DNA of 64,000 nt from Chloroflexota bacterium (GTDB lineage: Bacteria; Chloroflexota; Dehalococcoidia; Lucifugimonadales; JACPQL01). The DNA lies in NCBI GenBank assembly GCA_016190445.1, contig JACPQL010000051.1, forward strand, positions 38,505 to 102,504, read 5' to 3'. The notes below the pieces were generated by a model. That model did not search any database. It was not told the DNA's origin and saw only the letters and a list, made by a program, of their open reading frames with translations. Every line of letters starts with the position of its first letter. The stretch's first letter is position 1. Both the position numbers and the translations under genes were made by a program. Below are positions 37,442-63,468 of the stretch, piece after piece.

Positions 37442-37473
37442 AAGCTATTCGGAAAACCCTCACCCCCTTTGGT

Positions 37474-37531
37474 CCCCCTCTCCCTTGCCAAGGGAGAGGG
37501 GGAGAAGAGTGAATCTGGGGGACACCCCCAG
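37474..37531. repeat. REP-like GC-rich hairpin pair downstream of the cox operon
   Basis: A 13-bp stem ccccctctccctt-gcc-aagggagaggggg (37474..37502) and a 7-bp stem ctggggg-aca-cccccag (37515..37531). An outer inverted 8-mer pair ttcggaaa (37448) / tttccgaa (37578) brackets them. Confidence 0.7.
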
Positions 37532-39533: not shown

Positions 39534-39567
39534 GGGCCCAGGCAGGACAACTGCCTGGGCCCTTTGT
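39534..39567 (+). terminator. Rho-independent-type terminator after the dehydrogenase gene
   Basis: A perfect 12-bp stem gggcccaggcag-gacaa-ctgcctgggccc is followed by tttgt. Confidence 0.7.
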
Positions 39568-39650
39568 CTGCCTCTCCCGCCAGTGGCCGACAACAACCTT
39601 TTCGCGATGCTTCGCCCTTCCGTTTGCGATAAGATTCACAAGCAGGGGTC

Positions 39651-39680
39651 TTGACAACGCCGTCGGTGACATCCAAAATT
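39651..39680 (+). promoter_or_regulatory. Candidate sigma70-like promoter for SBP copy 1
   Basis: TTGACA (39651..39656) is followed after 17-18 nt by CAAAAT/AAAATT. This leaves a leader of about 200 nt before ATG 39883. The -10 box is weak. Confidence 0.4.
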
Positions 39681-41673: not shown

Positions 41674-41753
41674 CAACTGCCGCTGGTCCCCCAGTTGAAG
41701 GACCAGCACACGGAAGCTGCCTCGGTCAAGCTGGAACAGGAGGTAACCGGACA
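41674..41753 (+). repeat. Conserved short inter-SBP spacer (type 1 of 3 copies)
   Basis: It shares gaaggaccagcacacg...ggaacaggaggtaac(c/t)ggacaATGaaagcgag with 43545..43622 and 47446..47523. It contains the RBS and shows no terminator hairpin. Confidence 0.8.
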
Positions 41754-43544
41754 ATGAAAGCGAGAGCCAGGGGTCATTTTAGAATACTTTGGGGTCTGGC
41801 CGGAGCGCTGGCCGTCCTGGCACTGCTGGGCGCCTGCGCCGGCGCCGAGCCCACCGCCACGCCCACCTCCACTCCGACACCGACCACGGCTGTAGGACCC
41901 GCTCCAACGCCAACCCCCAGGCCCTCACCCACGCCAACGCCGACAACCCGCGTGGTGATGATCGCGACGCCCACCCCCACCCCCACGCCGGGCGCAGTGC
42001 AACCCACCACCAGGACACCCAGGGGCAGCATCACCGTGGCCAGTGGGCCCCTGGCTGCCTACCCCCACTCGCCAGACTATCGCTTCGGGACCTCGGGGGA
42101 TGCCTTCTTCCTGCATCTGGCCTTCGAGTGGCTGGTGGGGGTCACCCCTGAGCACCAGCTTGTACCCATGCTGGCGGAGAGCTGGGAGAGCCCAGATGGT
42201 GGCCACACCTGGGTCTTCAAGCTGCGCAAGGGGGTCAAGTTCCACAATGGCAAGGAGATGACCGCAGAGGACGTGGCCACCAGCTATAACAGCACCAGGA
42301 AGAGTGGCACCAGCACCAGTGCTGGGTGGGCGCGGGCGAACCTTACTGACTTTGTCGTCGTGGACAAGTACACCGTCCGCACTACCATGGCACGGGAAGG
42401 TCAAAAGCTCTTCCTGCCCGCCTATCTCGGGCGCTCCTCCTGGTACGCTCAGCCGATTTCCCCCAAGGAGATGTTCGACAAGTACCCCGACAAGCCCTGG
42501 CCCGCCTCTGACGCCATCGGCACCGCCCCCTATCGCCTGGCGGAGGTGGTGAGAGGCGAGAAGATGCGCGGCGTGGCCCTGGACCCCAAGACAGATTGGG
42601 CCCACTGGCGCATTGTCCCCGCCTTTAAGGAGGTCACCGTCCGCCCGGTGAAAGAGGATGGCACCCGAATCGCCATGCTGAAGACCGGCGCCGCAGACCT
42701 CATTGACGTGCCCACCGCCCTCAAGGGCGAGCTGGCGGCCTTTGCCAAAGCCTCCGCTAAGAACGGGGCCACCGCGGGCCTGGCCAACATCATGGGCATG
42801 GACCACCCCCTCAGCAAGTGGTGGCAGGTCAAAGAAGTGCGAATGGCGCTCAACATGGCCATTGACCGCCAGGAGATTGCCGACTTCCTGTTCAATGGAG
42901 AGGCGGAGCCCATCGCGGCCCTGCACTTCGGCCCCGGCACTGAGGGGTTCGACCCTAATCTCAAGCCCACCGCGTACGACCCGGTCAAGGCACGCCAGCT
43001 CCTCAAGGACGCAGGCTACGACATGAACTTCGTGTGGAATATCTGGCTCCGAAGCATGGCCGGGGTGCCGGAGCTTCAGGCCCTGGGTGAGGCCATCGCC
43101 GCCAAATGGGAAAAGGAGCTGGGCATCAAGACCAAGCTCATCCCCACCGACTCCACCGTCAGCGATAGAGCTATGCGTGACCACGATCCGGCCATCGTGG
43201 GCCACTTCCTGACCCGGCGCTCCACCAACTTCCCGGACGTCTCCCTGCCCATCAACACCTTCTCCGTCTCAACCGTCGTGAGAGGCAGCCATAGCATCGT
43301 CCCGTGGCATGAGGCAGGCCCCACAGACAAGCTTTACCTCGATCTGTCGGCTGCCGCCGACCCCAAGGAACGGGCCCGCATAGCCGGGCAGATACAGCGC
43401 TACCTGCACGACGAGTATGTCCACGTGGACGCCTGGTCGGTGAATGTGCTCTATGCCTATAACCCCAAGACCATAGGCAAGTGGACGCCCCTCCAGGGCT
43501 CTACCTATCTGCACTTCCTGGAGTACGCCGAGCCGCCAAGCTAA
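41754..43544 (+). CDS. Family-5 SBP lipoprotein, array copy 2 (class B)
   Basis: ATG 41754 (MKARARGHFRILWGLAGALAVLALLGAC). PT tether. SPDYRFGTSGDAFFLH. FKLRKGVKFHNGKEMTAEDV. 596 aa. Confidence 0.9.
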   Translation: MKARARGHFRILWGLAGALAVLALLGACAGAEPTATPTSTPTPTTAVGPAPTPTPRPSPTPTPTTRVVMIATPTPTPTPGAVQPTTRTPRGSITVASGPLAAYPHSPDYRFGTSGDAFFLHLAFEWLVGVTPEHQLVPMLAESWESPDGGHTWVFKLRKGVKFHNGKEMTAEDVATSYNSTRKSGTSTSAGWARANLTDFVVVDKYTVRTTMAREGQKLFLPAYLGRSSWYAQPISPKEMFDKYPDKPWPASDAIGTAPYRLAEVVRGEKMRGVALDPKTDWAHWRIVPAFKEVTVRPVKEDGTRIAMLKTGAADLIDVPTALKGELAAFAKASAKNGATAGLANIMGMDHPLSKWWQVKEVRMALNMAIDRQEIADFLFNGEAEPIAALHFGPGTEGFDPNLKPTAYDPVKARQLLKDAGYDMNFVWNIWLRSMAGVPELQALGEAIAAKWEKELGIKTKLIPTDSTVSDRAMRDHDPAIVGHFLTRRSTNFPDVSLPINTFSVSTVVRGSHSIVPWHEAGPTDKLYLDLSAAADPKERARIAGQIQRYLHDEYVHVDAWSVNVLYAYNPKTIGKWTPLQGSTYLHFLEYAEPPS

Positions 43545-43622
43545 CAACCGCCTGACCCTTTCGCCGAAGGACCAGCACACGCACGCTGCCTCGGGCAAGC
43601 TGGAACAGGAGGTAACTGGACA
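43545..43622 (+). repeat. Conserved short inter-SBP spacer (copy 2)
   Basis: Nearly identical to 47446..47523, and related to 41674..41753. Confidence 0.8.
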
Positions 43623-45413
43623 ATGAAAGCGAGCGACAGGGTCCACCTAAGAGTCCTTTTCGGCCTGGCCGGGCTGCTTGTGCTCCTGGCGCTTCTGGGC
43701 GCCTGCGCCGGCGCCGAGCCCACGCCGACGCCAACCCCCACGCCCACCCTGGCGCCGGGCGCACCCACGCCGGCGCCTACGCCCAGGCCTTCTCCTACCC
43801 CTACTCCAACGCCCCGAGTGGTGATGGTGGCCACGCCGACCCCCACGGCCACGCCAGGCGCGGTGAAGCCCAGCGTCCGGGAGCCCAAGGGCAGCATCAC
43901 CATAGCCAACGGAAGCTTTGTGAGCGCCGCCCATTCCCCAGACCGGCGGTTCAGCTCCTCAGCCTCCGACTACTTCTACCAGCAGTTGGCCTTTGAGTGG
44001 CTGGTGGACGTCAACCCGGAGCACCAGAATTTCTCCATGCTGGCGGAGAGCTGGGAGACGCCAGACCAGGGCCACACTTGGATATTCAAGCTCCGCAAGG
44101 GGATCAAGTTCCACAACGGCAAGGAGATGACCGCCGAGGACGTGGCCGCCAGCTACATCAGCAACCAGAAGGTGGGCCAGGGGAGCGGCGCCGACTGGCA
44201 AAGGGCGAACGTCGGACTGGTAGAGTCAGTGGACAGGTACACGGTGCGCTTCGTCCTGAAGCCCGAGGACCGCCGGGCGTTCCTGCCGCCCTACCTTGGC
44301 CGCTCCTCCTGGTTCTCCCAGGTCATCTCCCCCAAGGAGATGTTCGACAAGTACCCAGACAGGCCGTGGCCCGCTCAGGACGCCATAGGCACGGGCCCCT
44401 TCCGCCTGGTGGAGGTGGTGAGGGGTGAGAAGATGCGCGGCGTGGCCCTGGACCCCAAGACCGACTGGACCCACTGGCGAATCGTCCCCGCCTTCAAGGA
44501 GGTAATCGTACGCCCAGTCAAGGAGGACGGCACCCGCATCGCCATGTTGAAGACGGGAGCCGCTGACCTCATTGACGTGCCCACTGCCCTCAAGAAGGAG
44601 GTGGCTGCCTACCGCCTTGTCCGCTCCAAGCATGGTTCCACCGCTGGCCTGGCCAACTTCATGGGCATGGACCACCCACTGAGCAAGTGGTGGAGCAAGA
44701 AAGAGGTCCGCATGGCCCTCAATCTGGCCATTGACCGACAGGAGATCGCCGACCACATCTTTGGAGGCGAGGCCGACGTCATAGCGGCCACCCACTTCTA
44801 CCCAGGGGTGGAGGGGTTCGACCCGGACCTCAAGCCCTATCCCTACGACCCGGCCAGGGCACGCCAGCTCCTCAAAGACGCGGGCTACGACTTCAACAAC
44901 GTGTTCAACGTCTGGCTTTACGCTGCTAGCGGCGTGCCAGAACTCCCCGACCTGGGTGTAGCCATCGCCGCCATGTGGGAAAAGGAGCTAGGGGTGAAGA
45001 CCAAGCTCATCCCCACCGACTCTCCCACATTCACCAACATGGGGAAAGTCCACGACCCCTCTGTCGTGGGCCACTTCTGGACCCGCCGCTCCAGTAGCTT
45101 CCCGGACCTCACGGTGCCCGTCTCCACCTTCTCCGTCTCGCCAAAGATGCGAGGCGACCACCGCAACATCCCGTGGCACTTTGAGTCACCCACCGATGCG
45201 CTTGTAGTGGCCTTGCAGGCGGAGGCAGACCCCAAGGAGCGCGAGCGGCTCGCCAGACAGCTACAACGCATACTCTACGAGGACTACGTCCATATTCAGG
45301 GTTGGTCGGTGCCCGTGCTCTACGCCTTCAATCCGAAGACCATCAAGGAGTACGAGCCACTCAACGGCTCCACCTACCTGAACTTCCTGGAGAACCTGGA
45401 GCCGCCAGGCTAG
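43623..45413 (+). CDS. Family-5 SBP lipoprotein, array copy 3 (class C)
   Basis: MKASDRVHLRVLFGLAGLLVLLALLGAC. PT tether. SPDRRFSSSASDYFYQQLAFEWLVDVNP. IFKLRKGIKFHNGKEMTAEDV. 596 aa. Confidence 0.9.
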   Translation: MKASDRVHLRVLFGLAGLLVLLALLGACAGAEPTPTPTPTPTLAPGAPTPAPTPRPSPTPTPTPRVVMVATPTPTATPGAVKPSVREPKGSITIANGSFVSAAHSPDRRFSSSASDYFYQQLAFEWLVDVNPEHQNFSMLAESWETPDQGHTWIFKLRKGIKFHNGKEMTAEDVAASYISNQKVGQGSGADWQRANVGLVESVDRYTVRFVLKPEDRRAFLPPYLGRSSWFSQVISPKEMFDKYPDRPWPAQDAIGTGPFRLVEVVRGEKMRGVALDPKTDWTHWRIVPAFKEVIVRPVKEDGTRIAMLKTGAADLIDVPTALKKEVAAYRLVRSKHGSTAGLANFMGMDHPLSKWWSKKEVRMALNLAIDRQEIADHIFGGEADVIAATHFYPGVEGFDPDLKPYPYDPARARQLLKDAGYDFNNVFNVWLYAASGVPELPDLGVAIAAMWEKELGVKTKLIPTDSPTFTNMGKVHDPSVVGHFWTRRSSSFPDLTVPVSTFSVSPKMRGDHRNIPWHFESPTDALVVALQAEADPKERERLARQLQRILYEDYVHIQGWSVPVLYAFNPKTIKEYEPLNGSTYLNFLENLEPPG

Positions 45414-45434
45414 GACAGCCATGGCCACCATCCC

Positions 45435-45468
45435 AGGTCCCGCCCCGGGGGACATCGGGGCGGGACCT
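45435..45468 (+). terminator. Hairpin terminator candidate after SBP copy 3
   Basis: A 13-bp stem aggtcccgccccg (45435..45447) pairs with cggggcgggacct (45456..45468) across an 8-nt loop. The downstream T-tract is weak. Confidence 0.55.
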
Positions 45469-45482
45469 GTTATCCCTACCAG

Positions 45483-45512
45483 TTGACAATGATGACATAG
45501 GTCAGCTAGACT
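45483..45512 (+). promoter_or_regulatory. Sigma70-like promoter for SBP copy 4
   Basis: TTGACA (45483..45488), 18 nt, TAGACT (45507..45512). The leader is about 135 nt. Confidence 0.55.
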
Positions 45513-45651
45513 CGTCGCACCACGCGCCAGAGTGGGCCTTTGAGTCCGCATGTGTGCGCTTGCGGGACGAATTTCGTAGCGCCTGTATCCCTCCCGGCAC
45601 CTAGCCCAGGGGAGGGAGTGACCGGGGTTGTCCCCCAGGAGGAGGTAGGCA

Positions 45652-47445
45652 ATGCAACTCACCACCAGGATTCGACCCAAGGCCCTCTGGGCACTGGCAG
45701 GGCTGCTGGCGCTCCTGGCACTGCTGGGGGCCTGTGCCGGTGCCGAGCCCACCGCCACGCCCACCTCCACTCCGACACCGACCACGGCTGTAGGGCCCGC
45801 TCCGACGCCCACACCCAAGGCTTCGCCCACCCCTACCCCAACGCCCCGCGTCATCCTTGTGGCAACCCCCACGCCCACGCCCACGCCGGGGGCTGTGAAA
45901 CCTGCCGTCCGCGAGCCCAGGGGAGGTATCACCGTGGCCAACGGGCCTCTGGCCAACTACCCCCAGTCACCGGACTACCGGTTCGGCGTGTCCGGCGACG
46001 TCTTCTTCCTGCACCTCGCCTTCGAATGGCTGGTGGGGGTAACCCCGGACCACCAGCTCGTCTCCATGCTGGCGGAGAGCTGGGAGACCCCCGACAACGG
46101 CCACACCTGGGTCTTCAAGCTGCGCAAGGGCGTCAAGTTCCACAATGGCAAGGAGATGACCGCCGAGGACGTGGCCACCAGCTATAACTCATGCGCCGCG
46201 AAGGGCACGAACACCACCCTCTGCGGCTGGAACAGGAGCACCCTGACCGCCTTTGAGGTGGTGGACAAGTATACGGTGCGCACCTCCCTCAAGCGCGAAG
46301 GGGACAAGCTCTTCCTGCCGGCCTACCTTGGCCGCTCCTCCTGGTACGGTCAGGTGATCTCGCCCAAGGAGCTTTTCGAAAAGTACCCCGACAGGCCGTG
46401 GCCTGGGGGCGAATCTATAGGCACGGGCCCTTACAGACTGGTGGAGGTGGTGAGGGGCGAGAAGATGCGGAGCATTGCCCTGGACCCCAAGACTGACTGG
46501 GCCCAATGGCGCGTCGTCCCAGCCTTCAAGGAGGTCAACGTCCTCCCAGTCAAGGAAGATGGCACCCGCATAGCCATGCTCAAGACAGGCGCCGCCGACC
46601 TCATTGACGTCCCCACCGCCCTCAAGAAGGAGGTGGCGTCCTACGCCAAAGCCTCGGCCAAGCACGGCGCCACCGCTGGCCTGGCCAACATCATGGGCAT
46701 GGACCACCCCCTCAGCAAGTGGTGGAGCAAGAAAGAGGTCCGCATGGCCCTAAACCTGGCCATTGACCGCCAGGAGATCGCCGACTTCCTCTTCAACGGC
46801 GAGGCCGAGCCTATCGCCGCCCTCCACTTCTCCCCCACCGCGGAGGGGTTCGATCCCAACCTGAAGCCCCACCCGTACGACCCGGCGAAGGCTCGCCAGC
46901 TCCTCAAGGACGCCAACTACGACATGAACTTCGTGTGGAACATATGGCTTCGCGCCATGGGCGGGGTCCCCGAGCTCCAGGCACTGGGAGAGGCCATCGC
47001 CGCCAAGTGGGAGAAGGAGCTGGGCCTCAAGACCAAGCTCGTCCCCACTGACGCCACCGTCAGCCAGAGTGCCATGGAGAAGCACGACCCGGCCATCGTG
47101 GGCCACTTCCTTACTCGGCGCTCCACCAACTTCCCCGATCTCTCCGTGCCCATCAACACCTTCTCAGTCTCCGCAGCGCTGAGGGGCAGCCACACCACAA
47201 TACCCTGGCACGAGGCTAGCCCAATAGACCCGCTCAACCTCCAGCTCGCAGCGGCGTCGGACCCCAAGGAGCGGGCCCGCATAGCCGGGCAGATACAGCG
47301 CTACCTGCACGACGAGTTCGTGCACGTGGGCGACTGGTCGGTGCACGTGCTGTACGCCTACAACGCCAAGACCATAGGCAAGTGGACGCCCCTCCAGGGC
47401 TCCACCTATCTGCACTTCCTGGAGTACGCCGAGCCGCCAAGCTAA
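45652..47445 (+). CDS. Family-5 SBP lipoprotein, array copy 4 (class B)
   Basis: GGAGGAGG RBS. MQLTTRIRPKALWALAGLLALLALLGAC. SPDYRFGVSGDVFFLH. The C-terminus GKWTPLQGSTYLHFLEYAEPPS is identical to copy 2. 597 aa. Confidence 0.9.
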   Translation: MQLTTRIRPKALWALAGLLALLALLGACAGAEPTATPTSTPTPTTAVGPAPTPTPKASPTPTPTPRVILVATPTPTPTPGAVKPAVREPRGGITVANGPLANYPQSPDYRFGVSGDVFFLHLAFEWLVGVTPDHQLVSMLAESWETPDNGHTWVFKLRKGVKFHNGKEMTAEDVATSYNSCAAKGTNTTLCGWNRSTLTAFEVVDKYTVRTSLKREGDKLFLPAYLGRSSWYGQVISPKELFEKYPDRPWPGGESIGTGPYRLVEVVRGEKMRSIALDPKTDWAQWRVVPAFKEVNVLPVKEDGTRIAMLKTGAADLIDVPTALKKEVASYAKASAKHGATAGLANIMGMDHPLSKWWSKKEVRMALNLAIDRQEIADFLFNGEAEPIAALHFSPTAEGFDPNLKPHPYDPAKARQLLKDANYDMNFVWNIWLRAMGGVPELQALGEAIAAKWEKELGLKTKLVPTDATVSQSAMEKHDPAIVGHFLTRRSTNFPDLSVPINTFSVSAALRGSHTTIPWHEASPIDPLNLQLAAASDPKERARIAGQIQRYLHDEFVHVGDWSVHVLYAYNAKTIGKWTPLQGSTYLHFLEYAEPPS

Positions 47446-47523
47446 CAACTGCCTGGCCCTTTCGCCGAAGGACCAGCACACGCAAGCCGCCTCAGCCAAG
47501 CAGGAACAGGAGGTAACTGGACA
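47446..47523 (+). repeat. Conserved short inter-SBP spacer (copy 3)
   Basis: See 43545..43622. The homology continues into the 5' end of copy 5, matching that of copy 3 (ATGaaagcgagcg.cagggtccacctaagagtcctttt). Confidence 0.8.
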
Positions 47524-49314
47524 ATGAAAGCGAGCGCCAGGGTCCACCTAAGAGTCCTTTTTGGCCTGGCAGGTATGCTGGCGCTCCTGGCGCTGCTGGG
47601 GGCCTGTGCTGGTGCCGAGCCCACGCCGACGCCAACCCCCACGCCCACCCTGGCGCCGGGCGTGCCCACGCCGACGCCTACACCCAGACCCTCCCCCACC
47701 CCTACTCCAACGCCTCGCGTCATCCTTGTGGCAACCCCCACGCCCACAGCTACGCCCGGCGCTGTCCAGCCCACCGTCCGCACCCCCAGGGGGAGCATCA
47801 CGGTGGCCAACGCCAGTTTCGCCGGTGGCGCCCACTCGCCAGACCGGCGCTTCAGCAACTCGGCCTCTGACTACTTCTACCAGCACCTGGCCTACGAATG
47901 GCTGGTGAACGTGAACCCCGACCACCAGCTCCTCTCCATGCTGGCCGAAAGCTGGGAGAGCCCAGACGGTGGCCACACCTGGGTCTTCAAGCTCCGCAAG
48001 GGCGTCAAATTCCACAACGGCAAGGAGATGACCGCCGAGGACGTGGCCGCCAGCTTCAACAGCAACATGAAGGTCGGTCTGGGTAGCGGCGCCGACTGGC
48101 AGCGCGGAGCGCTCCAACCGGTAGAGGCGGTGGACAGGTACACCGTCCGGTTCACCTTCAAGGAGGCGAGCCGCCGCATGTTCGTTCCCGCTTACCTGGG
48201 GCGCTCCTCCTGGTTCTCCCAGGTGATCTCCCCCAAGGAACTGTTCGACAAGTACCCGGACAAGCCCTGGCCCGGTGACGAGTCCGTCGGCACAGGCCCC
48301 TTCCGCCTGGTGGAGGTTGTACGAGGGGAGAAGATGCGCAGCGTTGCCCTGGACCCCAAGACCGACTGGACCCACTGGCGTGTAGTGCCTGCTTTCAAAG
48401 AGATAATCCTCCGCCCGGTGAAGGAGGACGGCACCCGCATCGCCATGCTCAAGACTGGCGCCGCCGACCTCATTGACGTTCCAACCGCTCTCAAGGGCGA
48501 GGTCTCCAAGTACACCATCGTCAGGTCCAAGGCCGGCTCCACCGCGGGACTGGGGAACTTCGAGGGCATGGACCACCCCCTCAGCAAGTGGTGGAAGATC
48601 AAAGAGTTCCGCATGGCCCTCAACCTGGCCGTCAACCGCCAGGATATAGCGGACTTCATCTTCTACGGAGATGCCGAGCCCATCGCCGCCCTACACTTCT
48701 CTGCGGAGGTAGGGGGGTTCGACCCGGACCTGAAGCCATACCCCTACGACCCGGCCAGGGCACGCCAGCTCCTCAAGGACATCAACTTCGACTTCAACCA
48801 CGTCTTTAACGTCTGGCTGTACCCGCAGGGCGGCGTGCCAGAACTCGCGGCCCTGGGCACGGCCATCGCCGCCATGTGGGAGAGGGAGCTGGGAGTCAAG
48901 ACCAAGCTCATCCCCACCGATTCGCCCACCTTCACCAAGCTGGTGACCAACCACGACCCATCCGCGGTGGGCCACTTCTGGGCGCGCCGGTCAAGCAACT
49001 TCCCTGACGTGGCACTACCCATCAGCACCTTCTCCGTCTCGCCAGTGATCCGTGGCGCCCACCGCCTCATCCCCTTCCATGAGAGCGCCCCCATAGATGA
49101 CCTCGTCAAGGCGCTGGAGGCCGAGGCGGACCCGGCACAGCGGGCAAAGATCGCCCGCCAGATACAGCACTTCCTGTACGACAACTACGTGCACGTGGAG
49201 GGATGGTCGGTGAACGTGGTGTATGCCTTCAATCCGAAGACCATTAAGGAGTACGAGCCCCTCAATGGCTCCACCTACCTGAACTTCCTGGAGAACTTGG
49301 AACCGCCCAGCTAG
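47524..49314 (+). CDS. Family-5 SBP lipoprotein, array copy 5 (class C)
   Basis: MKASARVHLRVLFGLAGMLALLALLGAC. SPDRRFSNSASDYFYQHLAYEWLVNVNP. The C-terminus KEYEPLNGSTYLNFLENLEPPS resembles copy 3. 596 aa. Confidence 0.9.
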   Translation: MKASARVHLRVLFGLAGMLALLALLGACAGAEPTPTPTPTPTLAPGVPTPTPTPRPSPTPTPTPRVILVATPTPTATPGAVQPTVRTPRGSITVANASFAGGAHSPDRRFSNSASDYFYQHLAYEWLVNVNPDHQLLSMLAESWESPDGGHTWVFKLRKGVKFHNGKEMTAEDVAASFNSNMKVGLGSGADWQRGALQPVEAVDRYTVRFTFKEASRRMFVPAYLGRSSWFSQVISPKELFDKYPDKPWPGDESVGTGPFRLVEVVRGEKMRSVALDPKTDWTHWRVVPAFKEIILRPVKEDGTRIAMLKTGAADLIDVPTALKGEVSKYTIVRSKAGSTAGLGNFEGMDHPLSKWWKIKEFRMALNLAVNRQDIADFIFYGDAEPIAALHFSAEVGGFDPDLKPYPYDPARARQLLKDINFDFNHVFNVWLYPQGGVPELAALGTAIAAMWERELGVKTKLIPTDSPTFTKLVTNHDPSAVGHFWARRSSNFPDVALPISTFSVSPVIRGAHRLIPFHESAPIDDLVKALEAEADPAQRAKIARQIQHFLYDNYVHVEGWSVNVVYAFNPKTIKEYEPLNGSTYLNFLENLEPPS

Positions 49315-49334
49315 CATGACCCCACCACCCCTCG

Positions 49335-49366
49335 AGGCCCACCCTGGCGGGTGGGCCTCCTTTTTT
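49335..49366 (+). terminator. Rho-independent terminator after SBP copy 5
   Basis: aggcccaccc-tggc-gggtgggcct is followed by cc-tttttt-g. Confidence 0.8.
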
Positions 49367-49473
49367 GCTTTCCCGCAATTGTTGCGCCGCTTCCGTCGGT
49401 TGTTGCCACCACCATCCCAGCCCCCAATGTCAGGACGGCCCGTCATCTGTGCAGAACCTCATGAACCCGCAAT

Positions 49474-49502
49474 TTGACAGGACACAGGGGGCCAAATATC
49501 CT
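49474..49502 (+). promoter_or_regulatory. Sigma70-like promoter for SBP copy 6
   Basis: TTGACA (49474..49479), 17 nt, TATCCT (49497..49502). The surrounding block gaacccgcaatttgacaggaca.agggggccaaatatcct is duplicated at 51491..51532. Confidence 0.6.
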
Positions 49503-49551
49503 GGGCGCGTCTAGTTACGAATACACACTACTCCACGGAGGAGGTTGAGGC

Positions 49552-51342: not shown

Positions 51343-51362
51343 AATGGTCGTGGCCACCGTTC

Positions 51363-51396
51363 AAGGCCCACCCTGGCGGGTGGGCCTTCTTTTTTG
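51363..51396 (+). terminator. Rho-independent terminator after SBP copy 6
   Basis: aaggcccaccc-tggc-gggtgggcctt is followed by c-tttttt-g. It is homologous to the terminator at 49335. Confidence 0.8.
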
Positions 51397-51503
51397 CTTT
51401 CCTGTGGTTTTCGCTCTGCCTCCTTGGGGTTGTTGCCACCGCGGCCGGAGTCCCCGGTGCAAGAGCTACCCGCCATTTGTGCAGCACATCCCGAACCCGC
51501 AAT

Positions 51504-51532
51504 TTGACAGGACAGAGGGGGCCAAATATCCT
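51504..51532 (+). promoter_or_regulatory. Sigma70-like promoter for SBP copy 7
   Basis: TTGACA (51504..51509), 17 nt, TATCCT (51527..51532). Confidence 0.6.
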
Positions 51533-51587
51533 CTCCCGCGGCTGGTTACGAAGAACCACGGCTTCAGTAGAAGGAGGACTAGGCACA

Positions 51588-53375
51588 ATGCCGGGCACAT
51601 GGATTCGTATCAAAGCCCTCTGGGCGCTGGCAGGGATGCTCGCACTTGTGGCGCTGCTGGGAGCATGCGCAGGCGCCGAGCCCACTGCCACCCCGACCCC
51701 CACTCCCACCCTGGCCGCAGGGGCGCCTACGCCGACCCCCACACCCAAGGGTTCCCCCACACCCACACCAACACCGCGACTGGTGATCATAGCCACGCCC
51801 ACACCCACTCCCACGCCGGGCGCGGTCCAGCCCACGGCAAGGACCCCCAAGGGCAGCGTCACAGTGGCCAGTGGGCCCCTCTCCGCCTACTCCCACTCCC
51901 CAGACCGGCGCTTCAGCGTCGCTGCCGACTCCTTCTTCCAGGGCATCGCCTTCGAGTGGTTGGTGGGGGTGACCCCGGAGCACGAGCTGGTCTCCATGCT
52001 GGCCGAAAGCTGGGAGAGCCCTGACGGCGGCCACACCTGGATATTCAAGCTACGCCAGGGAGTCAAGTTCCACAATGGCAAGGAGATGACCGCCGAGGAC
52101 GTGGCCGCCAGCTTCAACAGCGACATGCAGGTGGGCACGGGCACGGCCAGCGCGTGGGCCAGGGAGAACCTGACCCCTTACGAGGTGGTGGACAAGTACA
52201 CCGTGCGCGTTTCCCTCAAGGGGGAAGGACGCCGCCTCTTCGTCCCCGCCTACATCGGCCGCTCCTCCTGGTTCGCCCAGGTCATCTCCCCCAAGGAGAT
52301 GTTCGACAAGTACCCCGATAAGCCCTGGCCCGTCTCCGAAGCCATAGGCACCGGCCCCTACCGCCTGGTGGAGGTGGTAAGAGGCGAGAAGATGCGCGGT
52401 GTCGCCCTCGACCCCAAGACCGATTGGGCCCACTGGCGTGTGGTGCCTGCCTTCAAGGAGATCACCCTCCGCCCCGTCAAAGAGGACGGCACCCGCATTG
52501 CCATGTTGAAGACCGGCGCCGCGGACATCATTGACGTCCCCACCGCCCTCAAGAAAGAGGTGGCGGGCTTCACCTTCAGCCGTGCGAAACACGGCGCCAC
52601 CGCTGGCTTGCTGAACACCGAGGGCATGGACAGCGACCTGAGCAAGTGGTGGAAGGTCAAAGAGGTCCGCATGGCCCTCAACCTGGCCATTGACCGCCAG
52701 GAGATCGCCGACTTCCTCTTCAACGGCGAGGCTGAGCCCATCGCAGCCATACACTTCTCCCCCGGCGCCGAGGGGTTCGACCCAAGCCTGAAACCCTATC
52801 CCTACGACCCAGCGAAGGCACGCCAGCTCCTCAAGGACGCTGGCTACGACATGAACTTCGTGTGGAACGTCTGGCTGCGCGGCATGGGCGGCGTCCCCGA
52901 GCTCCAGGCACTGGGTGAGGCCATTGCAGCCAAGTGGGAGCAGGAGCTGGGCGTCAAGACCAAGCTCATCCCCACCGACGCCACCGTCAGCGGCAACGCC
53001 GCCACCAAGCACGACCCGACCATCATCGGCCATTTCATCACCTTCCGCTCCACCAACTTCCCGGACATCTCAGTGCCCATCACCACTTTCTCCGGCGACC
53101 CGGACATAAAGGGGCGCCACGAACTGGTCCCCTGGCACGGAAAGGGGACCATCCACGACAACCTTGTGGCCCTTGGTGGAGCCGCGGACCCCAGGGAGCG
53201 CGCCCGCCTGGCTGGAGAGATACAGAAGACCCTCTACAACGACTATGTCCACGTGCAGGGTTGGTCGGTGCACGTGCTCTACGCCTTCAACCCCAAGACC
53301 ATCAAAGATTTCAGGACTCTCCAGGGCTCCACCTACCTCAACTTCCTGGAGTACCTGGAGCCCCCCACCCCGTAG
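51588..53375 (+). CDS. Family-5 SBP lipoprotein, array copy 7 (class A)
   Basis: ATG 51588 follows AAGGAGGA. MPGTWIRIKALWALAGMLALVALLGAC. SPDRRFSVAADSFFQG. HFITFRSTNFPD. 595 aa. Confidence 0.9.
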   Translation: MPGTWIRIKALWALAGMLALVALLGACAGAEPTATPTPTPTLAAGAPTPTPTPKGSPTPTPTPRLVIIATPTPTPTPGAVQPTARTPKGSVTVASGPLSAYSHSPDRRFSVAADSFFQGIAFEWLVGVTPEHELVSMLAESWESPDGGHTWIFKLRQGVKFHNGKEMTAEDVAASFNSDMQVGTGTASAWARENLTPYEVVDKYTVRVSLKGEGRRLFVPAYIGRSSWFAQVISPKEMFDKYPDKPWPVSEAIGTGPYRLVEVVRGEKMRGVALDPKTDWAHWRVVPAFKEITLRPVKEDGTRIAMLKTGAADIIDVPTALKKEVAGFTFSRAKHGATAGLLNTEGMDSDLSKWWKVKEVRMALNLAIDRQEIADFLFNGEAEPIAAIHFSPGAEGFDPSLKPYPYDPAKARQLLKDAGYDMNFVWNVWLRGMGGVPELQALGEAIAAKWEQELGVKTKLIPTDATVSGNAATKHDPTIIGHFITFRSTNFPDISVPITTFSGDPDIKGRHELVPWHGKGTIHDNLVALGGAADPRERARLAGEIQKTLYNDYVHVQGWSVHVLYAFNPKTIKDFRTLQGSTYLNFLEYLEPPTP

Positions 53376-53397
53376 ACCAGCAGCCGCCGCGCAGGAG

Positions 53398-53430
53398 GGC
53401 CCGCTCCGGTGTGACCGGAGCGGGCCTTTC
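53398..53430 (+). terminator. Hairpin terminator after SBP copy 7
   Basis: A 12-bp stem ggcccgctccgg-tgtga-ccggagcgggcc is followed by tttcc. Confidence 0.65.
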
Positions 53431-53510
53431 CTCTGCCACCTGCAACCCTTGCCACGATGCCATCCCCGGTACCTTTCCCCAGCCCTCCAGCAAATCCACG
53501 CGCACCCCAC

Positions 53511-53540
53511 TTGACAAAAGCGCCGATAGCCCCCTACACT
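53511..53540 (+). promoter_or_regulatory. Sigma70-like promoter for SBP copy 8
   Basis: TTGACA (53511..53516), 18 nt, TACACT (53535..53540). The leader is about 150 nt. Confidence 0.55.
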
Positions 53541-53691
53541 CCCCCTACTACCCACTTCTGGAAGGGCACCAGAGGTTGGTACCGTCTACACCCTCGACGC
53601 TTCGAGACGGATTTCGTACCCCACTCCTCCTGCTCCGGGGTAGCGTCACGGGAAAGCCATAACGGCCCACATATCATCTGGGAGGTGCATA

Positions 53692-55482
53692 GTGAAACGT
53701 AGATACTGGATTCGACCCAAGGCCCTCTGGGCACTGGCGGGGCTGCTGGCGCTTGTAGCGCTGCTCGGCGCCTGCGCCGGCGCCGAGCCCACCGCCACAC
53801 CCACTTCCACTCCCACACCCACCACGGCGGTAGGGCCCGCGCCAACACCCACACCCAGGCCATCACCCACCCCAACACCTACACCCCGCATCGTCGTGGT
53901 GGCAACGCCCACTCCCACACCCACGCCGGGCGCGGTCAAGCCCACCGTCCGCGAGCCCAAGGGGAGCATCACCTTCGCCAGCGGGCCCCTCTCCGCATAC
54001 TCGCACTCCCCGGACCGCCGCTTCAGCGTGGCCGCCGACTCCTTCTTCCAGGGCCTCGCCTTCGAGTGGCTGGTGGGAGTGACCCCCGACCACCAGCTCG
54101 TCTCCATGCTGGCAGAGAGCTGGGAGAGCCCTGACAACGGCCATACCTGGATCTTCAAGCTGCGCAAGGGGGTCAAGTTCCACAACGGCAAGGAGATGAC
54201 CGCCGAGGACGTGGCCGCCAGCTTCAACAGCGCCGCGGCTGTAGGCACGGGCACCTCCGCCGCGTGGCCCCGGTCCAACCTCACCCCCTTTGAGGTGGTG
54301 GACCAGTACACCGTTCGCACCTCGCTGAAGACAGAGGGGCGCCGGATGTTCGTGCCGGCCTACCTTAGCCGCTCCTCCTGGACGGCCCAGGTCGTCTCCC
54401 CCAAGGAGATGTTCGAGAAGTACCCCGACAAGCCGTGGCCTGTCTCCGACGCCATCGGGACCGGCCCCTACCGGCTGGTGGAGGTGGTTCGTGGCGAGAA
54501 GATGCGCGGCGTCGCCCTGGACCCCAAGACCGACTGGACCCACTGGCGAATCGTCCCCGCCTTCAAAGAGGTAATCGTCCGCCCGGTCAAGGAGGATGGC
54601 ACACGAATCGCCATGCTGAAGACCGGGGCCGCCGACCTCATTGACGTGCCCACCGCCCTCAAGAAGGAGGTGGCCGCCTTCACCAACGTCAGCGCCAAGG
54701 GCGGCGCCACCGCGGGCCTGATTAACCACGAGGGCATGGACGCCGAGGTGAGCAAATGGTGGAAGGTCAAAGAAGTCCGCATGGCCCTCAACCTGGCCAT
54801 TGACCGCCAGGAGATCGCCGACTTCCTCTTCAACGGCGAGGCCGACCCCATCGCCGCCATGCACTTCTCCCCAGGAACCGAGGGGTTCGACCCATCCCTC
54901 CAGCCGTACCCCTATGACCCCGTCAAGGCGCGCCAGCTCCTCAAGGACGCCAACTACGACATGAACTACGTGTGGAACATCTGGCTGCGCGGCATGGGCG
55001 GCGTCCCCGAGCTACAGTCCCTGGGCGAGGCCATCGCTGCCAAGTGGGAGCAGGAGCTGGGCGTCAAGACCAAGCTCATCCCCACCGACGCCACCGTCAC
55101 CGGCAACCTTATGGACAAGCACGACCCCAGCATCGTTGGGCAGTTCGTCACGTTCCGCTCCACCAACCATCCCGACGTATCGCTGCCCATCGTGACCTTC
55201 TCCGCCGACCCGGAGCTGTACGGGCGGCACGAGCTGAACCCCTGGCACGGCACTGCGCCCACCCACGACAACATTGTGGCTCTTGGCGCAGAGTCCAACC
55301 CCAAGGAGCGCGACCGCATTGCTCGAGAGCTACAGCGCTACCTGTATGATAACTACATCCACGTGCAGGGCTGGTCGGTAAACGTCCTGTACGCCTACAA
55401 CCCCAAGACCGTAGGCAAGTTCACCCCACTCCAGGGCTCCACCTACCTCAACTTCCTGGAGTACATCGAGCCCTCCAGCTAG
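53692..55482 (+). CDS. Family-5 SBP lipoprotein, array copy 8 (class A)
   Basis: GTG start after GGGAGG. MKRRYWIRPKALWALAGLLALVALLGAC. SPDRRFSVAADSFFQG. QFVTFRSTNHPD. 596 aa. Confidence 0.9.
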   Translation: MKRRYWIRPKALWALAGLLALVALLGACAGAEPTATPTSTPTPTTAVGPAPTPTPRPSPTPTPTPRIVVVATPTPTPTPGAVKPTVREPKGSITFASGPLSAYSHSPDRRFSVAADSFFQGLAFEWLVGVTPDHQLVSMLAESWESPDNGHTWIFKLRKGVKFHNGKEMTAEDVAASFNSAAAVGTGTSAAWPRSNLTPFEVVDQYTVRTSLKTEGRRMFVPAYLSRSSWTAQVVSPKEMFEKYPDKPWPVSDAIGTGPYRLVEVVRGEKMRGVALDPKTDWTHWRIVPAFKEVIVRPVKEDGTRIAMLKTGAADLIDVPTALKKEVAAFTNVSAKGGATAGLINHEGMDAEVSKWWKVKEVRMALNLAIDRQEIADFLFNGEADPIAAMHFSPGTEGFDPSLQPYPYDPVKARQLLKDANYDMNYVWNIWLRGMGGVPELQSLGEAIAAKWEQELGVKTKLIPTDATVTGNLMDKHDPSIVGQFVTFRSTNHPDVSLPIVTFSADPELYGRHELNPWHGTAPTHDNIVALGAESNPKERDRIARELQRYLYDNYIHVQGWSVNVLYAYNPKTVGKFTPLQGSTYLNFLEYIEPSS

Positions 55483-55506
55483 GGCCACCGCGGAACTGCC
55501 CGGCAA

Positions 55507-55542
55507 AGGGCCCGCCCCGGTGTTATCGGGGCGGGCCCTTCC
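55507..55542 (+). terminator. Hairpin terminator after SBP copy 8
   Basis: A 13-bp stem agggcccgccccg (55507..55519) pairs with cggggcgggccct (55527..55539), followed by tcctt. Confidence 0.65.
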
Positions 55543-55570
55543 TTATCGCAAGCGCCGCCGCCCAAACGCC

Positions 55571-55600
55571 TTGACAATGTTCATAGGAGGCGGCTACACT
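55571..55600 (+). promoter_or_regulatory. Sigma70-like promoter for the permease pair
   Basis: TTGACA (55571..55576), 18 nt, TACACT (55595..55600). The -10 hexamer is the same as in the copy-8 promoter. Confidence 0.55.
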
Positions 55601-55670
55601 GGCGGCATCCTTGCGGGGTCGCAGCAACGGATCGAAATGCCGTTGGCGGGACGCGGGAGGGAGAGGGTAA

Positions 55671-56588
55671 GTGCAAGGCTACATTTTGCGGCGGGTACTG
55701 GAGGGGCTGGCTGCCATACTCCTCATGACGGTCATAGTGTTCGCACTGGCACGCCTTTCAGGCAGCCCAGTGGACCTGGTGGCCGGCGAGTACGCCACCG
55801 ACGAGGACAGGGCCCGAGTTACCCACATGCTGGGACTGGACCGACCGGTGGCCCTGCAATACTGGATATTCCTCAAGAACTTCATGCGAGGTGACCTGGG
55901 GGAGTCTATCCGCACCCGTGAGAAGGTCACCGCCTCCATTCTGCACCGCTTTCCCGCCACGCTTCAACTGGCGGGAGGATCCCTCTTGGTGGCCCTTGTT
56001 ATAGCCGTTCCCCTGGGAGTGATCACCGCGGTCAAACGGGACACCAACATAGACACTGCGGGCAAGACCTTTGCCGTTTTGGGCCTGGCTCTGCCCAGCT
56101 TCTGGCTGGGCCTGGTGTTCATTGCCATCTTCGCAGTCAGGCTCCACTGGCTGCCTGCGGCCGGCAGAGGCGGGTTTAGCTACATGATCTTGCCTGCCGT
56201 GGCTATGGGGTGGCACGTCTCTGCTGGCATCCTGCGCCTGGTGCGTGGCAGCATGCTGGAGGTGCTGGACAGCGAGTACATCAAGCTGGCACGCATCAAG
56301 GGACTGCCGGAGTGGAAAGTGGTGTGGAAACACGCCCTGCGCAACGCCGTCATCGCCCCCATAACCTTCACTGCGGTCTACCTGGGCACCTTGCTCGCTG
56401 GCTCGGTAGTGATCGAAACGGTGTTCGTCTGGCCCGGGGTGGGCTTGCTGGCCATCGAGGCCTTCGGCTGGAGAGACTACCCGCTGGTACAGGGCATCAT
56501 CCTCTACATGACTGTTCTGTATATCTTCCTGAACTTGCTGGTGGACATTCTGTACGCTTACGTGGACCCGCGTATCCGGCTGACGTAA
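55671..56588 (+). CDS. ABC transporter permease, DppB/OppB-like
   Basis: GTG start after GGGAGGGAGAGGG. MQGYILRRVLEGLAAILLMTVIVFALARLSG is the typical N-terminus. The binding-protein-dependent transport inner-membrane component region is present (SEYIKLARIKGLPEWKVVWKHALRNA). 305 aa. Confidence 0.9.
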   Translation: MQGYILRRVLEGLAAILLMTVIVFALARLSGSPVDLVAGEYATDEDRARVTHMLGLDRPVALQYWIFLKNFMRGDLGESIRTREKVTASILHRFPATLQLAGGSLLVALVIAVPLGVITAVKRDTNIDTAGKTFAVLGLALPSFWLGLVFIAIFAVRLHWLPAAGRGGFSYMILPAVAMGWHVSAGILRLVRGSMLEVLDSEYIKLARIKGLPEWKVVWKHALRNAVIAPITFTAVYLGTLLAGSVVIETVFVWPGVGLLAIEAFGWRDYPLVQGIILYMTVLYIFLNLLVDILYAYVDPRIRLT

Positions 56589-56603
56589 CCCTCTGGAGAG
56601 CTG

Positions 56604-57500
56604 ATGGTGGATACTACTACTGCTGCCCCAATCCCTGGGCGGATCAACACCAGGACTCAGATGTTCCGCCATCTGCGGCGGATGCCCATCCTGCCGGCCG
56701 TGATCATAGTAGTCATGGTGGGAATGGCCGTGCTGGCGCCTGTGCTTTCCCCCCATTCACCCACCAGTGGCATACTGCGCGACCAGCTCAAGCCCCCCAT
56801 GTGGCTGGAGGGTGGCAGCGGTGAATACCCGCTGGGCACAGACCGCTTCGGACGAGACATCCTCTCTCGCATGATGCACGGTGCAAGGATATCGCTCATT
56901 GTGTCGCTGGTCTCCCTGGCGATAGGTGCCACCGTGGGCGCCACCCTGGGGCTCATATCGGGCTACCTGGGACGCTGGGTGGACGCCCTCATCATGCGCA
57001 TCGTGGACATGACGCTGTCCCTCCCGTTGTTCCTCATGGCCATAGTCCTGGCAGTGATCCTGGGGCCCAACCTCCTGAACGTGATCATCATAGTGGCCTT
57101 CCTGATATGGGCACGCTACGCCCGCATCATCCGGGGGGAGGTGCTCTCCCTTAGAAGCAGGGACTTCGTGGCTCTGGCTAGGGTGGCAGGTGCCTCCCAC
57201 ACACGTATCATTGTCAAGCACCTCTTCCCCAACGTGGCGCACACCCTCGTCATCCTCATAACCCTTCAGGTAGGGTGGGTCATCTTGCTGGAATCATCCC
57301 TCAGCTTCCTGGGCGTGGGCATCCCACCGCCCACCCCAGCCTGGGGCCTGATGGTGGCCGACGGCCGGAACTACGTGGACACGGCCTGGTGGATCTCGGT
57401 GGTCCCTGGCATCGCCATCGCGCTGATCGTTCTCTCCCTCAACCTGGCCGGCGACTGGCTGCGGGATGTGCTGGACCCCAGGCGCCGCCAGATGGCCTAG
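56604..57500 (+). CDS. ABC transporter permease, DppC/OppC-like
   Basis: PLGTDRFGRDILSRMMHGARISL is the OppC N-terminal motif. The EAA-like loop SRDFVALARVAGASHTRIIVKHLFPN is present. 298 aa. Confidence 0.9.
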   Translation: MVDTTTAAPIPGRINTRTQMFRHLRRMPILPAVIIVVMVGMAVLAPVLSPHSPTSGILRDQLKPPMWLEGGSGEYPLGTDRFGRDILSRMMHGARISLIVSLVSLAIGATVGATLGLISGYLGRWVDALIMRIVDMTLSLPLFLMAIVLAVILGPNLLNVIIIVAFLIWARYARIIRGEVLSLRSRDFVALARVAGASHTRIIVKHLFPNVAHTLVILITLQVGWVILLESSLSFLGVGIPPPTPAWGLMVADGRNYVDTAWWISVVPGIAIALIVLSLNLAGDWLRDVLDPRRRQMA

Positions 57501-57537
57501 CATCCTACCCGGCCTCTGATTCAGTCCTGGGCACACC

Positions 57538-57572
57538 AAAAGGCCCGCCCCAATGGGGCGGGCCTTTCCTTT
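57538..57572 (+). terminator. Terminator after the permease pair
   Basis: aaa-aggcccgcccc-aat-ggggcgggcct-ttcctttg: an 11-bp stem with A-rich 5' and T-rich 3' flanks. Confidence 0.75.
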
Positions 57573-57647
57573 GCCGGAGTGGCCCCACTCACACCTCAGC
57601 GCACGAATGGCCTTTCTGAATTGCGGAAAACTTCACAAGCTGACAGG

Positions 57648-57676
57648 TTGACAAGGGAAATAGGCCGCAATATACT
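57648..57676 (+). promoter_or_regulatory. Sigma70-like promoter for the SBP copy 9 / acyl-CoA dehydrogenase / CoA-transferase unit
   Basis: TTGACA (57648..57653), 17 nt, TATACT (57671..57676). Confidence 0.6.
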
Positions 57677-57776
57677 CTGGCCCTGTTGACCGCGGCCACA
57701 CCCCAGGACTCCCCAAAGGAGACACACCACGAAACCGAGCATCCACATCCGCTTCAATGTCTTTCTGCCACTGGTT

Positions 57777-62013: not shown

Positions 62014-62014
62014 A

Positions 62015-62107
62015 AACTGCTGCAAAAGTCCTGAGGACTTTTGCAGCAGTTATCCCCACCCCCAGAGGGAGCGGGGGACCCCGTTGCAAAACTCCGTTTT
62101 GCAACGG
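62015..62107. repeat. Twin perfect palindromes between the paired CoA-transferase genes
   Basis: A 37-nt palindrome aactgctgcaaaagtcct-g-aggacttttgcagcagtt (62015..62051) and ccgttgcaaaac-tcc-gttttgcaacgg (62081..62107). Both have a TGCAAAA...TTTTGCA core. Confidence 0.85.
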
Positions 62108-62124
62108 CCTGTAGGAGGTAGTCC

Positions 62125-63366: not shown

Positions 63367-63411
63367 TCCCCTCAGAGTCTTTCAAAGTTGTGGATTCGAC
63401 CCCCATCCTGA

Positions 63412-63468
63412 CCTTCCCCCGCAAGCGGGGGAAGGGACATATCCTCTCCCCCGTTGCACGGGGGAGAG
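63412..63468. repeat. REP-like GC-rich hairpin pair
   Basis: ccttcccccgc-aa-gcgggggaagg (63412..63435) and ctctcccccg-ttgca-cgggggagag (63444..63468). The CTCTCCC...GGGAGAG style matches 37474..37502. Confidence 0.7.

Follow-up and report, generated by a model that had tools for sequence, protein, structure and literature searches.

Introduction

That binding proteins with promoters of their own can share one ATP-binding cassette (ABC) translocator is already established in Borrelia and Pseudomonas. In Borrelia burgdorferi, the tandem genes oppA1-oppA2-oppA3 are present upstream of oppBCDF, and two further copies, oppA4 and oppA5, are plasmid-borne. A separate promoter precedes each of oppA1-3, and RNAs of one, two and three cistrons are detected on Northern blots; the OppA receptors are differentially expressed and use a common translocator (PMC5736914). 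Here, a locus of a similar kind is described from a 64,000-nucleotide stretch of DNA (hereafter, the window) on contig JACPQL010000051.1, which belongs to the metagenome-assembled genome (MAG) of an uncultured Chloroflexota bacterium. It consists of nine paralogous genes for family-5 substrate-binding lipoproteins (substrate-binding proteins, SBPs; copies c1 to c9) that flank a single permease gene pair, permB-permC. The locus is probably a punctuated array and not one operon, that is, a lineage-specific expansion of a receptor gene whose copies are separated by predicted terminator-promoter junctions.

As in Borrelia, tandem family-5 lipoprotein paralogues stand by one permease set. The Borrelia locus has three tandem copies, ATPase genes within the operon and peptide ligands, whereas the present array has nine copies, no ATPase gene in 64 kb, and CoA-transferase and acyl-CoA dehydrogenase genes as neighbours. 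The use of promoters is also experimental in Borrelia and predicted from sequence here. In Pseudomonas aeruginosa, five family-5 paralogues, DppA1-A5, are described as bringing different substrates to a single DppBCDF (PMC4206461, PMC12728205). The DppA genes are interspersed with other genes, with one distant copy, and encode periplasmic proteins and not lipoproteins as here; unlike in the present array, a leader/follower junction grammar is not known to have been described for Dpp. Given the Borrelia and Pseudomonas precedents, the logic of the array is already known, and the general picture is unchanged. What appears to be distinctive is the array size (nine), the clean split of two junction classes and the lack of a close SBP homologue outside the MAG.

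Another kind of receptor dosage is provided by the repetitive extragenic palindromic (REP) hairpins of E. coli malEFG and Salmonella hisJQMP, which lie past the receptor gene and raise the receptor mRNA relative to the permease mRNA. The array resembles these operons in having a stable hairpin directly past receptor genes. However, the malEFG and hisJQMP hairpins are genome-wide REP repeats within a single operon, without re-initiation, whereas in the array a separate promoter-like site comes after each hairpin, and stems of the GGCCCGCCCC type are, within the window, confined to the array.

Two classes of junction in a nine-receptor array

The nine SBP genes occupy 39.9-59.5 kb of the + strand and have 581-597 codons each (Table 1). 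Their products align over the full length, with pairwise identities of 66-83% at the amino acid level, and the copies that were tested (c1, c4 and c9) match PF00496 (SBP_bac_5; Opp/Dpp/Nik-type, cluster C) with 186-220 bits against a cut-off of 32.4. In all nine copies, an LLGAC lipobox (ALLGAC followed by AGAEP) agrees with the bacterial lipoprotein pattern L-[ASG]-[GA]-C, and a Pro/Thr-rich tether of ~65 residues comes after it. Nine SBP genes and one permB-permC pair are thus found within 20 kb, as in a multi-receptor ABC importer. All genes of the array are on one strand, and all nine SBP open reading frames (ORFs) are intact. Pairwise synonymous divergence (dS) among the copies is 0.52-0.89, and the ratio of nonsynonymous to synonymous divergence (dN/dS) is 0.19-0.40; because of these ratios and the intact lipoboxes, all nine copies look maintained.

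The first-pass annotation had divided the junctions between these genes into two kinds, and the division stands. Three junctions are short (78-80 nt), lie where they were first placed and are alike, with 65/78 to 71/78 identical positions (83-91%). Their folding is no better than that of shuffled sequences (z -1.64 to +0.43). A hidden promoter or terminator inside them was considered and rejected, as no promoter-like site at 9/12 or better and no stable hairpin is present in any of the three. The other kind is long; the junctions after c3, c5, c6, c7, c8 and permC measure 238, 237, 245, 316, 188 and 276 nt, respectively. Each of these six contains a GC-rich hairpin and then TTGACA, a spacing of 17 or 18 nt and TAnnnT, in the correct orientation and exactly at the positions first listed. 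To these, the present analysis adds a seventh terminator/promoter block before c1 (hairpin at 39534, promoter at 39651). In terminator and promoter scans, only the long junctions carry both a stable hairpin and a near-consensus promoter.

The type of junction correlates perfectly with the class of N-terminus that follows it. Two 5' modules can be recognized: a promoter with a WIRPKALW-type N-terminus (leader) and a short spacer with an MKAxxRxH-type N-terminus (follower). The two N-terminal classes are as they were first described, except for c6, where the leader motif ends in LVG and not in LAG.

Table 1. Coordinates of the receptor genes, junction elements and permease pair in the window
Feature	Position	Strand	Evidence or remark
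Terminator-like hairpin past 2-hydroxyacid dehydrogenase gene, upstream of c1	39534-39562	+	12 bp stem, -29.9 kcal/mol, z -4.55; terminator scan
Promoter-like site for c1-c2-c3, TTGACA-17-CAAAAT	39651-39679	+	10/12 match
SBP copy 1 (c1), leader type, MKANTWIRPRALLVLAG	39883-41673	+	PF00496 E 3.6e-61; start picked by GGAGG Shine-Dalgarno
Short conserved spacer 1-2	41674-41753	+	fold z -0.29; 65/78 identical to other two spacers
SBP copy 2 (c2), follower type, MKARARGHFRILWGLAG	41754-43544	+	identical to P0004
Short conserved spacer 2-3	43545-43622	+	fold z -1.64; 71/78 identical to spacer 4-5
SBP copy 3 (c3), follower type	43623-45413	+	identical to P0007
Terminator-like hairpin past c3	45434-45469	+	15 bp stem, -34.9 kcal/mol, z -4.94; weak T tail GTTATCCC
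Promoter-like site for c4-c5, TTGACA-18-TAGACT	45483-45512	+	strict pattern
SBP copy 4 (c4), leader-type 5' end on c2-like body	45652-47445	+	82% amino acid identity to c2
Short conserved spacer 4-5	47446-47523	+	fold z +0.43
SBP copy 5 (c5), follower type	47524-49314	+	78% amino acid identity to c3
Hairpin and T tail past c5	49334-49372 (stem 49334-49359)	+	-25.6 kcal/mol; CTTTTTTG tail; terminator scan
Promoter-like site for c6, TTGACA-17-TATCCT	49474-49502	+	strict pattern; 28/29 to c7 promoter
SBP copy 6 (c6), leader type	49552-51342	+	N-terminal class, identity matrix
Hairpin and T tail past c6	51363-51401 (stem 51363-51388)	+	-23.1 kcal/mol, z -3.04; terminator scan
Promoter-like site for c7, TTGACA-17-TATCCT	51504-51532	+	strict pattern
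SBP copy 7 (c7), leader type	51588-53375	+	identical to P0001 = NCBI MBI2873304.1
Terminator-like hairpin past c7	53395-53429	+	-33.6 kcal/mol, z -5.38; TTTCCTCT after GC core
Promoter-like site for c8, TTGACA-18-TACACT	53511-53540	+	strict pattern
SBP copy 8 (c8), leader type, GTG start	53692-55482	+	N-terminal class; identical database protein
Terminator-like hairpin past c8	55506-55540	+	-36.1 kcal/mol, z -4.97; resembles hairpins past c3, c7, permC
Promoter-like site for permB-permC, TTGACA-18-TACACT	55571-55600	+	strict pattern
permB (55671-56588) and permC (56604-57500), between copies 8 and 9	55671-57500	+	PF00528, PF19300, PF12911
Terminator-like hairpin past permC	57539-57567	+	-31.0 kcal/mol, z -3.45; tail TTCCTTTG
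Promoter-like site for c9-acyl-CoA dehydrogenase-CoA-transferase, TTGACA-17-TATACT	57648-57676	+	11/12, best match in region
SBP copy 9 (c9), most divergent copy	57777-59522	+	PF00496; anomalous start region

The strict pattern TTGACA-N16-18-TAnnnT, searched for on both strands of the window, was found eight times, against 0.21 +/- 0.43 expected from dinucleotide shuffles, and all eight matches are outside long ORFs. Six are on the coding strand, one in each of the six long junctions, and the coding parts of the array have none. Another match, at 17479, is on the minus strand, where an ORF of 1629 codons starts 19 nt past its end. A looser scan gave 13 sites in 39-58.5 kb, where 2.7 +/- 1.8 were expected, and 3 in 12-31.9 kb, where 2.0 were expected. 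Together with the 10/12 site before c1, the six strict matches make up a set of sigma-70-type hexamer pairs, 16-18 nt apart, all of them intergenic, co-oriented and upstream of a gene. In a distantly related locus with SBP and CoA-transferase genes and a permease pair (L161), the perfect TTGACA-17 sites are likewise intergenic and correctly oriented (4/4). Use of the TTGACA consensus thus seems to extend to the wider lineage.

The hairpins of the six long junctions and the one upstream of c1 begin 20-39 nt past the stop codons. Their GC stems of 11-17 bp, at -23 to -36 kcal/mol (z -3.0 to -5.4), are of the stable kind found in intrinsic terminators. The flanks are A-rich on the 5' side and T-rich on the 3' side, and the promoter-like site comes 15-115 nt further on. 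At least 5 T are present in the 8 nt past the GC core in 6/7 hairpins. Naming the junctions by the genes on either side, a GGGCCCGCCCCGG-type stem is common to four of the long ones (j3-4, j7-8, j8-B and jC-9).

Some further signals lie close to the predicted promoters. A 16/20 block, TTGCG..AA..TTCACAAGC, is common to the promoters of c1 and c9, the outermost ones (39624-39643 and 57621-57640). The TTCACAAGC block ends 7 nt upstream of the -35 hexamer, and the inner promoters are without it. The 5' leaders of c4 and c8, otherwise unalignable, have in common a 22-nt block, CGCTT(G)CG(G/A)GACG(A/G)ATTTCGTA (45557-45578 and 53598-53618), which holds the palindrome ACGAAtTTCGT; the palindrome occurs at only those two places in the window (0.14 expected). 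This block, with ACGAATTTCGT, is a candidate operator common to the two promoter units. In j5-6 and j6-7, GGTTGTTGCCACC is perfectly conserved between terminator and promoter (49398-49410 / 51428-51440), as is GTTACGAA just past the -10 hexamer (49515-49522 / 51545-51552), and both islands may be regulator sites.

Other regulatory devices were looked for in the junctions and rejected. An Rfam scan of the junctions and 5' untranslated regions (UTRs), at the gathering threshold and at E<=1, gave zero matches in any junction. The predicted 5' UTRs are 43-197 nt long; no riboswitch or other structured leader was recognized in them by Rfam, and their fold z ranges from -1.8 to +1.6 relative to shuffles. 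As for leader peptides, only spurious GC-rich ORFs without a Shine-Dalgarno sequence were found.

Conservation and constraint of the junction elements

The similarities among junctions are far above background, with z 83 for j5-6 against j6-7 and z 35-41 for the short spacers. That the junction elements are under constraint is supported most strongly by the first of these pairs, the only long junctions that can be aligned throughout. The flanking coding sequences are 66-75% identical, and identity falls to 55% between the stop codon and the hairpin. It then rises to 37/39 (95%) in the hairpin and T tail, falls again to 62% over the next 76 nt, reaches 85% from -60 to -36 and 28/29 from -35 to -10, and is 65% in the 5' UTR. 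The earlier proposal that the terminator and promoter block after c5 is duplicated after c6 is thus borne out, and of the two short conserved islands, one falls on the predicted terminator and the other on the predicted promoter. Against a dS of 0.52-0.89 between the copies, such islands suggest that the hairpin and promoter elements are under constraint. With the pooled synonymous difference along the whole SBP gene at 0.3-0.6 in addition, the seven perfect TTGACA hexamers cannot be neutral relics.

The remaining long junctions can be aligned only in the hairpin and the hexamers, which argues that the common grammar is maintained and not merely inherited. It also means that the array is 'built from cassettes', as was first proposed, strictly for the post-c5/post-c6 pair only. 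The idea that all long junctions are copies of one cassette was rejected on this ground, j3-4, j7-8, j8-B and jC-9 sharing hairpin sequence alone.

It could be argued that the likeness of the junctions is a by-product of recent duplication and conversion, in which case conservation would be uninformative on function. Conversion tracts do occur in the array: many of the windows between -180 and +210 of spacers 2-3 and 4-5 are 93-100% identical, c4 and c8 have a run of 31/31 identical nucleotides in common, and the types of a linker motif (described below) are discordant with the similarity of the gene bodies. Yet, a by-product of this sort is improbable when the j5-6/j6-7 islands are considered, since these comprise the hairpin with its tail and the region -60..-10, are split by 76 nt at 62% and have flanks at 55-66%. 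In addition, 5/7 long junctions are otherwise unalignable yet follow the same grammar, and synonymous divergence stands at ~0.6.

In the short spacers, the last 55 nt (49-51/55, or 89-93% identical) evolve several-fold more slowly than synonymous sites, although conversion is evident around spacers 2-3 and 4-5. The spacers start directly past the stop codon with CAACTGCC(T)GGCCCTTT (47446-47462; also 43545- and 41674-). This start agrees at 17/18 positions (z 6.5) with the loop, 3' arm and T tail of the hairpin upstream of c1 (39548-39565), and the 5' arm is absent. A terminator that was 'disarmed' may have left the short spacers as its remnant, and its loss would have fused the genes into an operon; the significance of the match is only moderate.

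Proposed transcription of the array

The punctuated array would work as follows. The seven hairpins would act as intrinsic, probably partial, terminators and as stabilizers of 3' ends, and the near-consensus housekeeping promoter after each hairpin (TTGACA, 17-18 nt, TAnnCT-like) would allow re-initiation. The unstructured linkers of 78-80 nt, which carry only a strong ribosome-binding site, would join the genes on either side. The predicted primary units are c1-c2-c3, c4-c5, c6, c7, c8, permB-permC and c9 with the acyl-CoA dehydrogenase and CoA-transferase genes that follow it. Some read-through is probable and would give nested longer RNAs. Such a layout would let each receptor, or each small receptor group, be dosed independently of the translocator, and it would allow far more receptor than permease. 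The sequence elements, the non-random way in which they are placed and their selective conservation are observed; from these we infer terminator and promoter action, docking of the receptors on a shared permease pair and different ligands for different receptors.

Several points weigh against this reading. The transcription units are predictions, and the sites were scored against a sigma-70-type consensus, from which the host's own may differ. An uninterrupted, canonical T run is present in only 2 hairpins; the T-tail rule of the scan is passed only by those at 49334 and 51363 (and 39534), four further hairpins have 5 T in the 8 nt past the GC core, and the hairpin past c3 has a poor tail with 3 T in 8. 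The terminator role is a prediction, and the efficiency of termination is uncertain; with imperfect T tails on most hairpins, read-through and nested transcripts are likely. Gene conversion in the array (the c4/c8 run; a tract of ~400 nt at spacers 2-3 and 4-5) may make the conservation look stronger than it is. Scans of genome and metagenome contigs for orthologous arrays, on which a comparison of footprints between species could be based, gave nothing above ~40% identity. Lastly, the assignment of all nine receptors to this permease pair is drawn from adjacency alone, because there are no ATPase genes in the window.

The extreme form of read-through would be one operon transcribed from the c1 promoter, with the hairpins as REP-like barriers to 3'-5' decay or processing sites and the TTGACA sites playing a minor part. 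The co-orientation of all genes and the mostly interrupted T tails, poor past c3, fit such an operon, and a hairpin past the binding-protein gene is the classical route to an excess of receptor over permease. It does not explain why a perfect -35 hexamer, 17-18 nt and TAnnnT come after every hairpin and never in the coding parts of the array, nor why the promoter block is conserved as an island apart from the hairpin. Moreover, the three short spacers are without a hairpin, so that hairpins are no general feature of receptor 3' ends here. A single read-through operon is, therefore, considered unlikely, and the punctuated array is preferred.

Duplication history and mosaicism

A two-gene duplication of c2-c3 and c4-c5 had been proposed and is confirmed, with a period of ~3.9 kb, by the reciprocal best matches of c2 with c4 (82% at the amino acid level) and of c3 with c5 (78%) at equal dS of 0.62 and 0.66. 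Its edges can now be placed. Since j3-4 and j5-6 are unrelated, the duplication ends on the 3' side at the c3/c5 stop codon. On the 5' side, it begins within the gene, near codon 17, so that c4 bears a leader-type (c1/c8-like) 5' end: its first 90 nt are 82% identical to c1, 80% to c8 and 66% to c2. The two 5' modules thus each travel as a unit able to be joined by recombination to different gene bodies.

A further sign of mosaicism or gene conversion is given by the linker, which reads TSTPTPTTAVG in c1, c2, c4 and c8 and TPTPTLAxG in c3, c5, c6, c7 and c9. These variants cut across the gene-body groups {1,7,8}, {2,4}, {3,5}, 6 and 9. Along the gene, pooled dN/dS is 0.6-1.0 in patches at residues 171-200, 331-350, 461-480 and 501-520 and 0.06-0.4 elsewhere; the patches are candidate specificity-determining loops, which would fit diverging ligand specificity. 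The array would have arisen by expansion of one ABC-importer receptor gene and grown by tandem duplication, in which most of c2, the spacer and c3 were copied to give c4-c5. A second event would have copied a terminator-promoter-gene unit to give the c6/c7 junctions, with patches of gene conversion later.

Since the source is a MAG and repeats are hard to assemble, an assembler might have mis-strung or collapsed the paralogues of several strains. Any two copies, however, differ in at least 17% of their nucleotides, which is ample for unambiguous assembly. Nine intact ORFs in a single orientation, a contig of 185.6 kb and the perfect tracking of N-terminal classes by junction types also speak against an artefact of this kind, which is very improbable.

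Neighbouring genes, substrates and relatives

The array is preceded by genes for an HpcH-type aldolase and a 2-hydroxyacid dehydrogenase, and c9 is followed, 12 nt on, by an acyl-CoA dehydrogenase gene and then by two family-III CoA-transferase genes. The nearest solved structures to the SBPs are HbpA, YliB/GsiB, AccA, NikA and DppA (E 1e-25 to 1e-17). Among the NCBIfam equivalogs (GsiB, NikA, OppA, DppA and CntA), the best SBP scores are 95-99 bits against cut-offs of 393-1098. As all of these scores are far under the cut-offs, the ligand class is not assignable from NCBIfam or PDB. The permease pair also scores under every NCBIfam equivalog cut-off. In the 64-kb window, no ORF has both Walker A and LSGGQ motifs, as a cognate ATPase of the OppD/OppF type would. 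This was not taken as a striking anomaly, since 32/82 related permease loci are also without an ATPase-like ORF within 3 kb.

The neighbouring genes invite a tentative, and on balance doubtful, proposal about function. The receptors, instead of binding peptides or nickel, would have diversified into a set that binds organic (poly)carboxylic acids; these would feed the CoA-transferase, acyl-CoA dehydrogenase, aldolase and 2-hydroxyacid dehydrogenase encoded next to the array, and the Opp-type permease pair would borrow ATPases encoded elsewhere; promoter grammar and conversion would then be a lineage-specific route to new uptake specificities. The link between SBP_bac_5 and CoA_transf_3 genes recurs in two distant relatives (L161 and L162). 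Across three related loci (L160, L161 and L162), SBP relatives are found beside ATPase-less permease pairs and CoA_transf_3, acyl-CoA dehydrogenase or MmgE/PrpD genes. Such neighbours hint at organic-acid rather than peptide substrates.

Outside the MAG, genome and metagenome contig scans gave no close homologue of this SBP subfamily, with nothing above ~40% identity. Of 164 related loci, 143 have one SBP homologue, 18 have two and 3 have three or four. One of the loci, in an uncultured Sporosarcina MAG (L025, 3.9-20.3 kb), resembles the array in having tandem SBPs upstream of a permease pair, with 4 SBP homologues (tblastn) among 6 SBP-sized ORFs of 514-554 codons. Its two best promoter-like sites (11/12), at 9593 and 11608, are intergenic and upstream of SBP-sized ORFs; in this AT-rich genome, promoter-like matches overall are not above background (48 vs 43.5). 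In comparison with the present array, it is smaller, and its proteins are only 25-30% identical. A literature search for Chloroflexi, CoA-transferase and ABC-transporter paralogue expansions returned nothing specific. Other contigs of the same MAG contain a second expanded SBP_bac_5 family (P0009-P0014 and P0019) of at least 6 genes, 4 of them on one 67-kb contig. It is 32-35% identical to the array in the mature domain and has nearly the same lipobox and tether (CAGAEPTATPT...). The database proteins P0001-P0008, from the same contig as the array, are identical to copies 7, 8, 4, 2, 6, 5, 3 and 9, respectively.

The start of c9 is peculiar. At 57713-57779, no canonical start codon is available for the full signal peptide, every such codon being downstream of the charged n-region. 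Before the GTG annotated as the start (57777), the frame stays open and codes for TKPSIHIRFNVFLPLV, which has the length of the n-region of copy 8. ACG AAA, 7 nt past a perfect AAGGAG, stands in the place of ATG/GTG AAA in the other copies. The ACG could be a non-canonical start, a mutated start, with the signal peptide shortened or the copy in decay, or an error in the MAG consensus.

Other inverted repeats are present on both sides of the array. A perfect 15-nt inverted repeat, TCCCCCTCTCCCTTG / CAAGGGAGAGGGGGA, at 37473-37503 falls at the very start of the longest HpcH-type aldolase ORF. This repeat probably serves as terminator to the cytochrome oxidase subunit III gene that lies before it, which would place the true aldolase start further downstream. 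The 111-nt gap between the two CoA-transferase genes (62014-62124) folds into three hairpins in a row (-60.8 kcal/mol, z -7.8). Two of them, at 62021-62045 and 62085-62103, are perfect palindromes on TGCAAAA...TTTTGCA, which the window has at no other place. This gap has no match in Rfam and could be a paired terminator and operator or a structured RNA element. Between the final CoA-transferase gene and tRNA-Ser(GCT), two perfect hairpins of 11 bp, CCTTCCCCCGC/GCGGGGGAAGG and CTCTCCCCCGT/ACGGGGGAGAG, stand side by side at 63395-63480 and jointly reach -51.7 kcal/mol (z -5.45).

Significance

To our knowledge, few regulatory signals are known for uncultured Chloroflexota, and the locus offers candidate promoter and terminator sequences for one such lineage. 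It may also point, tentatively, to a set of receptors tied to the CoA-dependent catabolism of organic acids. If the predictions hold, the array would be an unusually legible natural case of the expansion of a receptor family, in which copies acquire or lose their own transcriptional control, the duplication history can still be read and an internal footprint marks both terminator and promoter.

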